IMG/VR virus record: IMGVR_UViG_3300027759_000043 | DNA from: a virus | Lineage: Duplodnaviria > Caudoviricetes | Length of the DNA: 64,000 nt | Strand: one strand, 5' to 3' | Shown: positions 12,801 to 17,651 of the stretch, one piece after another | How positions within the stretch are numbered: position 1 is the stretch's first letter | How the letters are laid out: every line of letters begins with the position of its first letter | Program-made: the position numbers and the translations under genes | The notes under the pieces: model-generated | Told to the model about the DNA's origin: nothing | Database searches by the model: none | What the model saw: the letters and a program-made list of their open reading frames with translations, nothing else

Positions 12801-13249
12801 CTAACTTCGGTACGTCCATCGCCCAAATCCTTAGCACGTACCACCCTCATATCCGAAGCCTGTGACCGATTTTCTGGATCAGCTTGTTGCTGTTCATAGA
12901 GTTCAAGCGCAACGTTGCGGCATACCGATTGAAACCAGCGTTCGGCGATCATAGTATCAGTATCATCATCACGTATCTTATACCCGGCACGAATCAGATT
13001 CAAAATAAATTTATCATTCCAATCAAGTTCAAATGCCCCACTGTTAATATCATATGGATCAATCTCCATCTTTAAAATATTAACATAAGGTAAACCTAAT
13101 TCTTCAGCTTTCTGTTTGTCTGAAACAGTAGCAGGTTCTTTCTTTACTTTAGGTTTGCGAGGTTTCTTTTCCTTAACTGGCTTTGGTTCCTCTACTACAG
13201 GATCTGGCTTTTTACCAAATAGATTCTTAATTTTATCAAACATCATCAT
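12797..13249 (-). CDS. Conserved phage protein (homolog of 41831-42223)
   Basis: GAFELDWNDKFI.NLIRAGY, RWFQ.VCR, D.G.GRTEVS shared. Confidence 0.85.
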   Translation of the reverse strand: MMMFDKIKNLFGKKPDPVVEEPKPVKEKKPRKPKVKKEPATVSDKQKAEELGLPYVNILKMEIDPYDINSGAFELDWNDKFILNLIRAGYKIRDDDTDTMIAERWFQSVCRNVALELYEQQQADPENRSQASDMRVVRAKDLGDGRTEVS

Positions 13250-13763
13250 ACTCCACTATACTACTATATAGTATATTATTATCCTGTAGTAGTTTTTCTC
13301 CGGGCAAGAATGTTAGATTGATAACTGTTCCAGCTTTAACCTCACTAACAGTAAAGTTGTTTCTTAACAAGTGACTAGTTGCTTTGATAGTTCCACCGGT
13401 AGCAAGCAAATCATCAATGATGAAGGGCAAACTACCAACTGGACTATGTGTCTTAATCTGTAATGTATCTACACTATACTCTGTGTCATAATCAATTGTA
13501 TGTACATCTCCGGGTAACTTACCTTTCTTGCGAACAAGAACAAGCGGCAAATTTAGTTTAGTTGCTACTGCTCCGCCGAACGGAAATCCTCTACTTTCAA
13601 TAGCCACAATGCTAGTACATCCTTCTGCTTGTACCGCAAGCATATCAACACAATATTGAAATTGTTCTGGACTAGAAAGAATCTTAGTGATATCTAAGAA
13701 GTTGATTCCTGCTTTAGGAAAATCAGGGATTACTGGTATGTAGTTTTTTAGTGTATGTTTCAT
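13236..13763 (-). CDS. apt: Adenine phosphoribosyltransferase
   Basis: DFPKAGINFLDIT, AIESRGF, LVRKKGKLPG, IIDDLLATGGT PRPP-binding motif; start MKHTLK. Confidence 0.92.
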   Translation of the reverse strand: MKHTLKNYIPVIPDFPKAGINFLDITKILSSPEQFQYCVDMLAVQAEGCTSIVAIESRGFPFGGAVATKLNLPLVLVRKKGKLPGDVHTIDYDTEYSVDTLQIKTHSPVGSLPFIIDDLLATGGTIKATSHLLRNNFTVSEVKAGTVINLTFLPGEKLLQDNNILYSSIVEYDDV

Positions 13764-14802
13764 ATAATTTAAAGCTAGCAAGATTCTTTGCCTTTGACTC
13801 ACACATGATATCAAAGTTATCTAAGAATGTCAATGCCCATTGGTTAACTGGGTCGTTCCAATAGTAGTCACTGTGGGCACGTAATTTTTGTTTATTGTAA
13901 CCTTCAGCAATTAGCGCACCATGATCGGGTAATCGTGTTGCGGAATGACCTGTGAGTACATCTTCGCGGCTAACACTGTAATGCATAGTAGGGCGCAGGC
14001 CACGCCAGCTATCAATAACCCTCTTAACCCTGTCGTCAGAAGGGTTAATGTATTCTCCCTCACGTATCCAATTATGGTGAATGTCCATGACCGTAGGTAC
14101 GAGGTCAGATAATGATAAGCAGTCAAGTAGTCCATGTGTGTATTCCTCATTCTCTAGTGTAAGTGTGTTTCGGGCTTCGGGTGACAAACGATTGTACACA
14201 TCACGAATGCCCTGTGGACCTTTACGACCACTGATGTGTACATTGATTTTGATATCCTGAAACTTTTGACCATAACCCATCATACGGGCCATGTCAACAT
14301 GATATTCAAATTCTTCTATACTCTTATTTACTACCTCTTCACGGTCGCTTGCTAAAACTACAAATTGGTCAGGGTGAAAGCTAAGACGAACATCATTAGC
14401 CCGTGCAGTTTCACCGATGGGTGCGAACCATCGTGCTAGATTATCCTGCATTGATTTATCTTGCCAAAAGTCCTGCCAGCCATCCATTGTATAGAAAGGC
14501 AACATATCCGATGTAAGACGAACCATACGCAATGACGGTTCCAGTGATGCTACTTTTTTAACTAGATTGTGAGTATGTAGAATGTTTTGTTTTGATACCT
14601 CAAGTACCTTTTCTTCTGCGACACTTTGAGTTTGTCTATTGACCCAGGCACGAGTTGTGCCACCTGTGTTTAGTTCTTTGATAGAACAGATTTCACCCTT
14701 ACTGTTTAGTTCACTAAACTTACAAGCGAACCCGATGCGTTTGATAGATTGATTTGTCAAGGTAAAAGCCCAAAGTGATAAATAAGATATGTAGTGTAAC
14801 AT
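13723..14802 (-). CDS. uvsE: UV-damage endonuclease (UvsE/UVDE)
   Basis: RIGFACK, RLSFHPDQF, NVH, LENEE, MDIHH, HSDY, MCESKAK; real start probably near 14760. Confidence 0.9.
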   Translation of the reverse strand: MLHYISYLSLWAFTLTNQSIKRIGFACKFSELNSKGEICSIKELNTGGTTRAWVNRQTQSVAEEKVLEVSKQNILHTHNLVKKVASLEPSLRMVRLTSDMLPFYTMDGWQDFWQDKSMQDNLARWFAPIGETARANDVRLSFHPDQFVVLASDREEVVNKSIEEFEYHVDMARMMGYGQKFQDIKINVHISGRKGPQGIRDVYNRLSPEARNTLTLENEEYTHGLLDCLSLSDLVPTVMDIHHNWIREGEYINPSDDRVKRVIDSWRGLRPTMHYSVSREDVLTGHSATRLPDHGALIAEGYNKQKLRAHSDYYWNDPVNQWALTFLDNFDIMCESKAKNLASFKLYETYTKKLHTSNP

Positions 14803-14839: not shown

Positions 14840-15514
14840 ATGAGATTTAGTGAAATTATATCCGAGGACGCTAATCCAAAGAGACAGGCAGCAATAGCCA
14901 TTGCCATGAAGAAAGCCGGGAAGAAACCAAAAAATGAAGATTTTGCTATGGAAGATGAGCAGATTGATGGAATGGCTCAGGGAGAGATTCGGGCAATTAT
15001 TAAAAACGCAATACATATTAAAAACCAATTGGATAGAGGTGTTAGTTTAGATGGCTGGATGTATAGTTATGTTACCACAAGCAATGATCATTTAAATAGT
15101 GTAGCAGAGCAAATTAATAACCCGAATATTGATGAGCAAGGTGTTGATGAGGGCTGGAGTCAAAAATATAAGAATAGTATCAACTGCTCAAATCCCAAAG
15201 GATTTAGTCAAAAGGCGCATTGTGCTGGTAAAAAAAAACAGGATGAATCTATAGAGACAGATCAAGTTGATGAAAATCTACACCAATGGTTTAAAGAGAA
15301 ATGGGTAAGATTTGGTCCAGATGGAAAGATCCGAGGTGATTGTGCTAGAGGAAGTGAATCAGAAGGAAAACCAAAATGCTTACCACAAAGTAAAGCACAT
15401 TCTTTAGGTAAAAAAGGAAGAGCATCGGCTGCTGCTAGAAAACGCCGTGAAGATCCCAATGCTAACCGTTCAGGAAAAGCAATAAATGTTAGCACTAAAG
15501 GAAAAGGAAAATGA
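14840..15514 (+). CDS. Modular putative internal head protein
   Basis: N-terminus MRFSEIISE resembles a capsid-targeting sequence; modules separated by AME, VDE, VDE. Confidence 0.65.
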   Translation: MRFSEIISEDANPKRQAAIAIAMKKAGKKPKNEDFAMEDEQIDGMAQGEIRAIIKNAIHIKNQLDRGVSLDGWMYSYVTTSNDHLNSVAEQINNPNIDEQGVDEGWSQKYKNSINCSNPKGFSQKAHCAGKKKQDESIETDQVDENLHQWFKEKWVRFGPDGKIRGDCARGSESEGKPKCLPQSKAHSLGKKGRASAAARKRREDPNANRSGKAINVSTKGKGK

Positions 15515-17034
15515 AAATATTAGATATTATAACCGAATCACATAATAGATGCCCACATTGTGGTGGTCCATTAGTTTCAGAATCTGAACTTATGGAGAAA
15601 AAAGATGCTTGCTATTATAAGATTAAATCTTCCGCTAAAGTATGGCCAAGTGCTTATGCGTCAGGTAGATTGGTACAATGTCGTAAAAAAGGTGCGGCCA
15701 ACTATGGTAACAAATCAGAAAGTATGGCGGAAGGCATCGCAGAAACTCTGCAACAACAACAAGTTCGTGCAGCAATTACTAAAGGTATGGCAAAATGGGA
15801 TCAGAGTGATTTGGCTACCTATAAAAGTCAACCTACTAATCTGCAACATTGGGATCCTAGCGGGTGGGCTAGTGGACAACTAAAAGGGATAAATTCAATA
15901 GATCCTGACGGTACCGTAGTAATAGAACTTAATGATACTACCACTGCTGGTTTGGTTAAAAAATTAGCAGCATTGGGGGGTATGCCCGGTGTTAAAACTA
16001 GACAACTTAAGATGACGTTTGATCCAGCAAAAGCAAACGCAAATGGAGTGACACAGGGCGATGTGGCGGAAGGCTTGACAGAGATAGATAATCGTACACC
16101 AAGCGGTGATCGTGAAGAACAGCGTAGAAATCGTCCAGAAGCAAAAGCAAAACAAGATAAAGAACAACAGAAACGGTTAAAAGATACAAGCCCCGAAATG
16201 CGTAAAAAGTTACGCTTACCAGAACCAAAAGAAGGTATGGCGGAAGGCTTCGAGAACAATAATACAACAGCACAAAAAATATTCTTTGCTCGTAGTAATA
16301 AAGCACCCAAAGAATGGAGTTATGACCATGTTGGATTTATAACTCAAGATGGAAAACAAATTCAAATGAGTGGGCATAAAGGCAATGATGTATATGTCAC
16401 TAACGATGTGACTGATGATCCGGAGTTTCCTAAACAAAATATCAAAATTGTATCATTATCAAAACCAGTATCGGTTCCTACAACTAACTCAGTAGGAGCA
16501 GAAAATTGTGGGACATTTGTGGCAAATGTATTACAAGCCAATGGTATAAAAGGTATTGATACACAAAAAATATATAGTGTGTTCAAAAAACCTCAACCTC
16601 AAGAGCAAGGTGTGGCGGAAGGTGTTCGGACCGAGTCTGCCGAGTTGGCAAAACAATATGGCTGGGCATACAACCAAGGTGAGTACGGAGCATCAATGAC
16701 GCATCCAAAACATGGTCGTATTTCTCTTAGTTCTCCAGTGACTAGTAGGAGCGGAGATACCGCAGTTGAACGTGAGTGGACACATAATAATGCCAGTGGT
16801 ATTGGTGACAGATCATTAGCACAGCATTTACAAAGTTTAAAAGAGCAAGGCATGACGGAAGCCAAGGACGACTATGTTCCACCTAAAGAAGCCGACTATG
16901 GTCCAGAATATCAAGCCATGGTCCGGCGTGTGGGCGAAAAAGCCCGGGCTCAAGAAAAAGCCAAGCAACAGCCGCCAAAAGCACCTGTGCGTGAAAGCCG
17001 TCTGGCGTTGTTGAAACAAATCATCCAATCATAA
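15511..17034 (+). CDS. Modular polyprotein-like putative internal head protein
   Basis: MKILDIITE N-terminus; modules joined by MAEG/VAEG/MAEG/VAEG/MTEA. Confidence 0.7.
   Translation: MKILDIITESHNRCPHCGGPLVSESELMEKKDACYYKIKSSAKVWPSAYASGRLVQCRKKGAANYGNKSESMAEGIAETLQQQQVRAAITKGMAKWDQSDLATYKSQPTNLQHWDPSGWASGQLKGINSIDPDGTVVIELNDTTTAGLVKKLAALGGMPGVKTRQLKMTFDPAKANANGVTQGDVAEGLTEIDNRTPSGDREEQRRNRPEAKAKQDKEQQKRLKDTSPEMRKKLRLPEPKEGMAEGFENNNTTAQKIFFARSNKAPKEWSYDHVGFITQDGKQIQMSGHKGNDVYVTNDVTDDPEFPKQNIKIVSLSKPVSVPTTNSVGAENCGTFVANVLQANGIKGIDTQKIYSVFKKPQPQEQGVAEGVRTESAELAKQYGWAYNQGEYGASMTHPKHGRISLSSPVTSRSGDTAVEREWTHNNASGIGDRSLAQHLQSLKEQGMTEAKDDYVPPKEADYGPEYQAMVRRVGEKARAQEKAKQQPPKAPVRESRLALLKQIIQS
15725..16862 (+). 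repeat. Dispersed 10-bp repeat TGGCGGAAGG at module joints
   Basis: Exact copies at 15725, 16064, 16238, 16613; variant TGACGGAAGC at 16853. Confidence 0.9.
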
Positions 17035-17121
17035 GAACACCCTTAGGACCGCACTAGTTGCGAGGGTGCCCGGGTGCTGGGCGTGGAAAGCGATTCGCTA
17101 CCGTGATCCACAAAGTGAGCA
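17035..17121 (+). ncRNA. Candidate structured RNA, family unknown
   Basis: CACCCU/AGGGUG, CGCA/UGCG, CCCGG/CUGGG, GUGGA/UCCAC stems; GC-rich island. Confidence 0.5.
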
Positions 17122-17651
17122 TTTTTCTTGCAATTATTATAATGGTAACGTTTCATATTGTTGTTACCTCCAGTTTTTCCACAGTGCGGACAAGTTGATT
17201 TTGAAATAGGATGTGGCTTTCCAATTTTTCCTTTTGAAATACTAGCAATCTGCTCAGCAGATCGAGGTTTACGCATTTTTTGTAAAGTTTCTTCTTTGTG
17301 TGGAATACCTTTGTTCCATGCAGATTTTCCTCTAATCTTTGATATTCTCTTTTCAATATGAGCATCACTTTGTTTCAAACCCGATATGCCGTTGCCACCA
17401 TCGGTTTTGTTTCGTAAGATTCCTGTTCCTAAATCTTTACGTCCGTACCAAAGAATCATTCTTCTTTCTAAGGCCAATGCGCCAACTTCAGACAAATTTT
17501 TTTCAAGAATCACAATACGTGATTTGTCCAGAGGGGTTATAAATTGTTCTGTTTTATTGTGTTTCCAAGCACGACGATCTTTACCTTTACCGATATAGTA
17601 AGGTGTGCCATCTTTTCTTAGATAGGCATAGACATAGAAGTGTAAATACAT
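17043..17651 (-). mobile_element. Free-standing GIY-YIG homing endonuclease with NUMOD3-like repeats and Zn knuckle
   Basis: YVYAY...[22 protein letters not shown]; HKEETLQKM; CPHCGK...C; opposite strand to neighbours. Confidence 0.85.

Follow-up and report, generated by a model that had tools for sequence, protein, structure and literature searches.

ORF1 and ORF2, two overlapping open reading frames (ORFs) of an uncultured freshwater T4-like jumbo phage, are best explained as head-cargo polyproteins whose modules are connected by a short recurrent sequence, hereafter the joint. In the protein the joint would act as a linker and protease site, and in the DNA as the homology by which general recombination exchanges cassettes; we hold this explanation with moderate confidence. 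ORF1 (14840-15514, 224 aa) and ORF2 (15511-17034, 507 aa) overlap in an ATGA and lie in a stretch of 64,000 nucleotides (IMG/VR record IMGVR_UViG_3300027759_000043), hereafter the window; all coordinates given for the two ORFs are on its + strand. A preliminary description of this DNA had assigned to both ORFs a leader of nine residues, and their coordinates and start sequences (MRFSEIISE in ORF1, MKILDIITE in ORF2) are confirmed here. The window also contains a gp43-type DNA polymerase, a ligase and 11 tRNAs, and the runs in which this stretch occurs are freshwater and lake metagenomes. The nearest record found, G005, is a 364-kb contig that has terminal repeats and is complete, and its DNA polymerase shares 88% identity with that of the window; megablast of 25 kb returned no close relative among deposited phages. 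All relatives considered below are metagenome assemblies.

In the scheme that we propose, the two proteins would be members of a large polyprotein family of uncultured freshwater T4-like jumbo phages. The nine-residue leader (consensus M-R-A-x-E-F-I-x-E) probably directs each protein onto the prohead scaffolding core, and a prohead protease of the gp21 family probably cuts after the Glu of each hydrophobic-x-Glu joint, giving modules of 6-15 kDa. Once freed, the modules would stay inside the head until they enter the host together with the DNA; among them are some small, basic proteins rich in Cys and at least one module that is probably a cysteine hydrolase. The joint, 15-21 nt long (GAG CAA GGT GTG GCG GAA GGC), appears letter-identical in more than 150 unrelated module contexts. 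As it is the sole homology between unrelated cassettes, general recombination could exchange, insert, delete and duplicate cassettes there in frame, either between co-infecting phages or between the joints of one genome. Each product would retain a cleavable linker and every event would copy the joint; joints that match the consensus would help cassettes to spread, and joints no longer exchanged would drift.

The 10-mer TGGCGGAAGG occurs four times in the window (15725, 16064, 16238 and 16613), always on the + strand and in frame within ORF2, where it reads [M/V]-A-E-G. Only 0.02 copies are expected by chance, and none of 100 shuffles gave four. Allowing up to two mismatches, the 15-mer GGTGTGGCGGAAGGC finds these four window sites and no other. 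The preliminary description had listed the four exact copies and measured the modules between joints at 113, 58, 125 and 80 codons. It had also noticed that the joint uses the GCG codon for Ala and that 16601-16622 resembles 16841-16862. These remarks are all borne out: GCG accounts for 7.8% of the Ala codons in such ORFs, and the resemblance amounts to 86% over the 21-mers 16601-16621 and 16841-16861. Its wider proposal that hydrophobic-x-E motifs divide both proteins into modules stands for the extended joints and for two VDE sites of ORF1, the only ones that match homology boundaries in relatives. It is not supported for LME-K, which is located within a conserved domain across which homology in relatives is continuous, and for VRE-S, where no homology breakpoint backs a boundary. 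The hydrophobic-x-E motif alone is too common to be informative.

Conservation of the joint extends to its silent positions. In 58 IMG/VR loci, which were retrieved by within-module peptides and not by the joint sequence, the 10-mer is present in most, without exception in frame and on the coding strand; in its full form the consensus reads [E/Q/K]-Q-G-V-A-E-G, with the codons CAA GGT GTG GCG GAA GGC. Codon choice was counted in 49 non-redundant G[VM]AEG joints, with the same ORFs as background. Ala is GCG in 45 of 49 joints (background 7.8%; P=2e-45), Val is GTG in 40 of 44 (22%; P=3e-22), the preceding Gly is GGT in 43 of 49 (45%; P=7e-10), the following Gly is GGC in 40 of 49 (28%; P=1.5e-14) and Glu is GAA in 48 of 49 (79%; P=1.6e-4); these binomial P values assume independence and, since the joints share ancestry, overstate the significance, but the contrast is nevertheless large. 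Thus the preliminary idea of a joint fixed at the DNA level agrees with a conservation far beyond codon usage. Because GGT and GAA are common codons, the joint is a fixed string and not a run of rare codons. At x[LIVM]AEG sites without the preceding Gly (n=17), GCG is used in 7, including joints 1 and 2 of the window, and GCA, GCC or GCT in the other 10. The exact 18-mer is found in at least 120 IMG/VR contigs, where by our own arithmetic about 2 would be expected by chance in such a collection. Among all loci collected, 239 of the 251 copies of the 14-nt core are in open frames, flanked by approximately 163 module families upstream and 157 downstream. In the larger contigs, the joints are concentrated in a few genes per genome.

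Comparison of the relatives places the breaks in homology at these sites. Between L003 and the window, 2772 nt are 99.5% identical; this match begins 8 nt ahead of joint 3 (G-M-A-E/G, 16234-16248), and the two sequences are unrelated upstream. L004 is 95% identical over 2330 nt ending at 16074, the last base of joint 2 (D-V-A-E/G, 16060-16074), and the two sequences are unrelated beyond it. Further pairs break at joints (L005/L006, L021/L022/L023 and L003/L013). Counted over all 731 ends of high-scoring segment pairs, 45-51 are within 10 nt of a joint, compared with a rough estimate of about 2 expected. Cassette architectures vary between the relatives, and a single joint displays gain, loss and replacement: the order is C4-C1 in L013, C4-X-C1 in L003, C4-C5-C1 in L005 and ...-X-C1 in the window. 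Three different modules precede the terminal cassette: one in the window and L003, another in L005 and a third in L013. The preliminary description had supposed that module content varies at the joint, and in these relatives (L003, L004, L013/L005) it changes exactly there. In the two closest relatives the head of ORF2 is retained (leader, zinc-ribbon-like motif, DACYYK domain and joint) and is followed by entirely different cassettes; L032 and L036 combine this head with different tails. Within ORF1, the pieces 35-105, 99-143 and 141-222 are reordered in an L008 polyprotein, and cyanophage matches span single modules only. Contigs from four freshwater runs, belonging to four studies, have other partners at 16074, 16232, 16603/16604 and 14870; a contig of run X4 carries the L004 continuation at joint 2.

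Cassette X (16246-16620, 125 codons) has been transferred horizontally. Its DNA is near-identical in 12 loci, where at least nine different partners adjoin it upstream and at least nine downstream. The cassettes of G002, G001 and G003 are 98, 91 and 90% identical to it, respectively, in phages whose DNA polymerases are only 62-63% identical to that of the window; G005 and G004, with polymerases of 88% and 80% identity, lack the cassette. In a protein library of 1.84 billion representatives clustered at 50% identity, cassette X is present at 78-100% identity in 41 proteins of 150-1028 residues that are less than 50% identical overall, at positions ranging from residue 11 to residue 663. Most of these proteins have GVAEG upstream of the cassette and QGVAE[G/A/D/E/K] downstream, and more diverged copies have degenerate joints (QNVAE, QDMVE, QGMDE) that retain only hydrophobic-x-E.

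The degenerate joints bear on an alternative that we consider unlikely, though by no means negligible, according to which the identity of the joint DNA is a by-product. The peptide would be selected as a protease site or flexible linker, the codons would be due to recent descent or to translational pausing, and recombinants with exchanges inside domains would die. Besides the diverged copies of X, which keep only the protein motif, this explanation can draw on the near absence of silent variation among the 12 loci with cassette X, an indication that X spread recently, and on the rarity of GCG and GTG, as the idea of pausing at domain boundaries expects. However, the same codon choice is repeated across about 160 unrelated contexts and also occurs in phages whose polymerases are 62% identical, and the GGT and GAA of the joint are common codons. 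Moreover, the leader is an equally conserved peptide, yet its codons vary freely (TTT 25 and TTC 12 for Phe; ATT 14, ATC 8 and ATA 15 for Ile); the leader is thus conserved at the peptide level and the joint at the DNA level. Between sequences that are 95-99.5% identical, the exchange is located within 12-18 shared bases, as homology-guided exchange predicts. We infer that the identity of the joint DNA is a cause of exchange and not merely its result.

The simplest mechanism is probably a homology-guided general exchange within the 15-21 shared bases, and a RecA/UvsX-like recombinase is present in four of five relatives. The preliminary description had gone further and regarded the joint as the recombination site of an in-frame integron. 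The part of this proposal that concerns swaps at the joint holds, since they occur exactly there, but no tyrosine or serine recombinase was found in five relatives, and the joint has no attC-like dyad or structure. A true in-frame integron would require dedicated machinery of sequence-specific action (a recombinase, a guide-directed activity or a nuclease coupled to repair), which recognises the joint and excises and integrates cassettes, perhaps via circles. The joint would then be the recognition site of an activity that rebuilds the phage's arsenal of injected proteins, with recombination site, linker and protease site in one sequence. Such a machine is improbable in our view. It would account for a joint of 15-21 nt, very short as a substrate of general recombination, that is letter-perfect across more than 150 contexts and uses rare codons, and for the joints left dangling with 2-3 further codons at gene ends (QGVAEGLK-stop in L009, for example); the mini-circles of PeSL elements provide a T4-type precedent. 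Nevertheless, both tyrosine recombinases (PF00589) and serine recombinases are absent from five relatives, two of them nearly complete, in searches in which control genomes were positive. A GIY-YIG endonuclease is intact only in the window and L003, and is reduced to a remnant of 28 residues in L005, L006, L007 and L013. There are no inverted repeats or dyad symmetry at the joints and no significant RNA structure (fold z-scores of -0.74 to +1.06). The only complementary, guide-like copy of the joint in the window is a match with three mismatches, within chance.

The leaders resemble the capsid-targeting sequence of T4. In the related loci, the pattern M-[RK]-x-x-[ED]-[FI]-[IL]-x-E begins 141 non-redundant genes, with up to seven per locus and often in tandem arrays, where we estimate about one match by chance; its commonest form is MRAxEFIxE. 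The simplest of these genes consist of leader, joint and cassette, as in MRANEFLKR-GVAEG-X. The capsid-targeting sequence of T4, MKTYQEFIAE, is by itself enough for foreign proteins to be loaded into the head, and gp21 removes it. The leaders have in common with it the EFIxE core, the terminal Glu and the length. This number of similar leaders and their common core strengthen the capsid-targeting role that the preliminary description had proposed for MRFSEIISE and MKILDIITE, each of which is N-terminal, about 10 residues long and terminated by hydrophobic-x-Glu. The major capsid protein gp23 (PF07068) and the gp21 protease (PF03420, Peptidase_S77) are encoded in three joint-bearing relatives, including G005. 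When aligned to T4 gp23, the capsid propeptide of the relatives ends in ...QLLAE/SSAG or ...YLKE/N, and neighbouring core proteins contain AVE/G and VAE/S. By analogy, the V-A-E/G joints look like sites for the prohead protease.

Several points weigh against the head-cargo and exchange explanation. Some of them would favour ordinary cytoplasmic multidomain proteins, neither packaged nor cut, with a leader that has another role such as translation initiation. Packaging and processing are proposed by analogy with T4. The locus is situated in the replication region, adjoining uvdE and the DNA polymerase, and outside the head gene block. The T4-type late promoter TATAAATA is not enriched upstream of leader genes (1.4% versus 0.7% for exact matches, 16% versus 14% with one mismatch). 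A cytoplasmic role is nevertheless very improbable, because the leader matches the T4 capsid-targeting sequence in its EFIxE core, its length and its final Glu, because the linker agrees in form from P3 to P1 with gp21-type sites and with the end of the capsid propeptide in the relatives, and because the module sizes are within the range of T4 internal proteins. Genes for T4 internal proteins also occur outside the head block. The remaining objections concern the phage itself and the exchange. The window phage's own head genes are beyond the window, gp21 and gp23 being known from relatives, and tblastn against 50,697 phage records found no match to cassette X in cultured phages. The joints are not independent, and part of their identity could be due to recent descent together with spread cassettes such as X. 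For joint 3 of the window, none of the contigs listed bridges it with at least 31 nt on both sides. Assemblers can switch strains within the shared 375-nt cassette, so that some long-range architectures may be chimeric; the junctions themselves are observed. Finally, classical work on T4 indicates that 15-21 nt is short for efficient homologous recombination, and a helper activity may thus be missing from the picture.

The head-cargo polyproteins resemble several known systems without coinciding with any of them. IPI, IPII, IPIII and Alt of T4 likewise have an N-terminal leader of about 10 residues with an EFIxE core, a final Glu and hydrophobic-x-Glu cleavage motifs; they are small, often basic cargo, highly variable between related phages, in T4-type phages with gp21 and gp23, which on the present side are known from three joint-bearing relatives. 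However, the T4 internal proteins comprise a single module and are cut once, whereas here many unrelated modules are chained in one frame, with a putative cleavable linker, fixed in DNA, at each joint. In T4-type phages, short repeats called PeSLs, dispersed over the variable regions, are crossover points for gene insertion, deletion and replacement between related phages, and their mini-circles have been demonstrated; each PeSL combines an early promoter with a terminator stem-loop in a small regulatory cassette (Arbiol et al. 2010, PMC2839356; PMC4122927). The joints similarly mark the boundaries of insertions, deletions and replacements between close relatives. Unlike PeSLs, as these are described, the joint is a 15-21 nt sequence within a reading frame that encodes a linker, keeps the frame and has no stem-loop. 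In the gp38 tail-fibre adhesins of T4-type phages, short, strictly conserved glycine-rich motifs separate variable segments and exchanges often occur in or near the motifs (PMC3157838). The gp38 motifs are inside one folded domain and the order of the segments is fixed, whereas the modules described here are independent, unrelated in fold and variable in number and order, and the motif resembles a protease site.

In the polyvalent proteins that phages and conjugative elements encode, 2-15 unrelated domains are combined in highly variable architectures; the prediction for these proteins is packaging in the head and delivery along with the DNA, and some undergo proteolytic processing (Iyer et al. 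2017, PMC5512222). ORF1 and ORF2 are similar in having several unrelated domains per phage polypeptide and a variable architecture. The polyvalent class is, however, defined by signature domains (MuF, metallopeptidase, ParB-like, ART and others), some of its members are probably self-processing, and descriptions of it report neither a T4-type leader nor a universal joint conserved at the DNA level. As in integrons, an array of interchangeable cassettes follows a fixed head and a short repeat marks each boundary; but there is no integrase and no attC hairpin here, and the cassettes are in-frame protein segments instead of genes. For these loci, "integron" is only an analogy. We found no paper on a DNA-fixed in-frame joint linking many unrelated cargo modules.

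If the proposed scheme is true, it would give phages a compact route for evolving injected proteins, in which one short sequence is a protease site in the protein and a crossover point in the DNA. Cassettes could follow one another in any order, and each would still reach the head and be released as a protein of its own. This would explain why repertoires of head cargo, probably including anti-defence and host-takeover proteins, change more quickly than other parts of the genome. As sequence handles, the 18-mer and the leader could retrieve candidate injected proteins by the hundred from lake metagenomes; no fewer than 150 module families are in sight, nearly all without assigned function. The arrangement also suggests a rule for the design of T4-type capsids loaded with several cleavable cargoes.

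With regard to the individual features, Pfam searches of ORF1 and ORF2 gave nothing above threshold, and both ORF1 and the head of ORF2 are made of small Lys-rich, Cys-containing modules. ORF1 comprises leader 1 (14840-14866), a capsid-targeting-like sequence that fits the consensus and directly after which metagenome contigs diverge (at 14870), and three modules, the middle one with WSQKYK...C..C and the last one DUF5872-like with WVRFG...KPKC. A degenerate joint, EQGVDE/G (15134-15154; GAG CAA GGT GTT GAT GAG GGC), is 76% identical to the 21-mer of joint 4 (repeat family D1), and homology pieces end there. The second boundary, VDE/N (15266-15274), is where the pieces 99-143 and 141-222 meet.

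ORF2 consists of a leader, an anchor module and five cassettes. Leader 2 (15511-15537) fits the consensus. The anchor module (15538-15732), with a CPHCGG zinc-ribbon-like motif and a DACYYK...CRKKG domain, corresponds to phrog_38880, phrog_727 and phrog_3477; it has tblastn matches in 363 phage records and is kept in the closest relatives and in cyanomyoviruses. Joint 1 (S-M-A-E/G, 15721-15735; AGT ATG GCG GAA GGC) follows, and relatives match only residues 1-74 of ORF2. The 113-codon cassette (15733-16071), common to the window and L004 only, has no assigned family. After joint 2, the comparison of architectures among relatives delimits a charged 58-codon cassette of low complexity (16072-16245). 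Cassette X is followed by joint 4 (E-Q-G-V-A-E/G, 16603-16623; GAG CAA GGT GTG GCG GAA GGT), which has the consensus form. The terminal cassette (16621-17031), of 137 codons (80 + 57), has no assigned family and contains joint 5 (E-Q-G-M-T-E/A, 16843-16863), which is never seen split. Joint 5 is known in three distinct versions, ATG ACG GAA in the window, GTG TCG GAG and ATG GCG GAG; in this sample of three sequences, the differences fit a drift of unused joints at both silent and replacement sites. An internal translation start at the ATG or GTG of the joints was rejected by eye because AAGG is only 1 nt upstream. Some polyprotein genes stop 2-7 codons past a consensus joint (L009 near 4376, L112 and L087), and the next leader gene begins immediately afterwards; a cleavage site at such a position has no obvious use in the protein.

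Cassette X is probably a permuted papain-like Cys/His hydrolase. H28 and C88 are invariant, the structure model is confident (pLDDT 87), and the fold matches are weak but consistent (PPPDE/DeSI, LRAT, NlpC/P60), with an additional lead to Peptidase_C92; no match at E <= 0.001 was obtained in the PDB fold search. Cassette X is also known as stand-alone proteins (P0052-P0065; 119-138 residues, 42-58% identity), so that probably either the cassette arose from an independent gene or the gene from the cassette. The ORF2 cassettes other than X belong to no recognisable family; in the atlas search, the 113-codon cassette had no usable match and the terminal cassette scored at most 0.81. Among the polyproteins of the relatives, Pfam recognises only cytidine deaminase, DUF6321, DUF5872 and a weak GNAT. 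For instance, a polyprotein of 1151 residues from a 264-kb relative (L014:3116-6568) has a cytidine/dCMP deaminase domain (PF00383, E=9e-12) together with cassette X. By eye, the DGNHR and DGTHR cassettes of L009:3239-4396 and L029:338-2272 resemble nucleases of the ParB/sulfiredoxin type. The same small basic modules (DACYKK domain, DUF5872-like, DUF6321) are fused in hypothetical genes of Synechococcus phage ACG-2014d (L001, gp086) and P-SSM4 (L002, PSSM4_156), in ACG-2014d between gp16 and gp17; these cyanomyovirus genes have neither the QGVAEG joint nor the leader.

A second type of N-terminus, MILNEFFNLPQVFEK, is found on several polyproteins (L003:3803, L005:2372, L013:619) and resembles the start of a small prohead-core-like ORF of G003 (MKLFEMFNPAVEG, L064:272-499). 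The N-termini of T4 gp67 and gp68 were considered as models for this second leader type MILNEFFNLPQVFE, but there is no obvious likeness. Directly after ORF2, a GIY-YIG/NUMOD3 homing-endonuclease gene (17043-17651, - strand) is intact in the window and L003 only, and L005, L006, L007 and L013 have just its last 28 codons; it looks like a recent gain or loss beside the cassette locus. This distribution led us to reject the endonuclease as the agent of exchange. Upstream of ORF1, a uvdE UV-damage endonuclease gene (13723-14802, - strand; Pfam E=1.5e-36) is syntenic in L004 and L021-L023, and the adjoining ORF (13236-13814, - strand) resembles by eye an adenine phosphoribosyltransferase.

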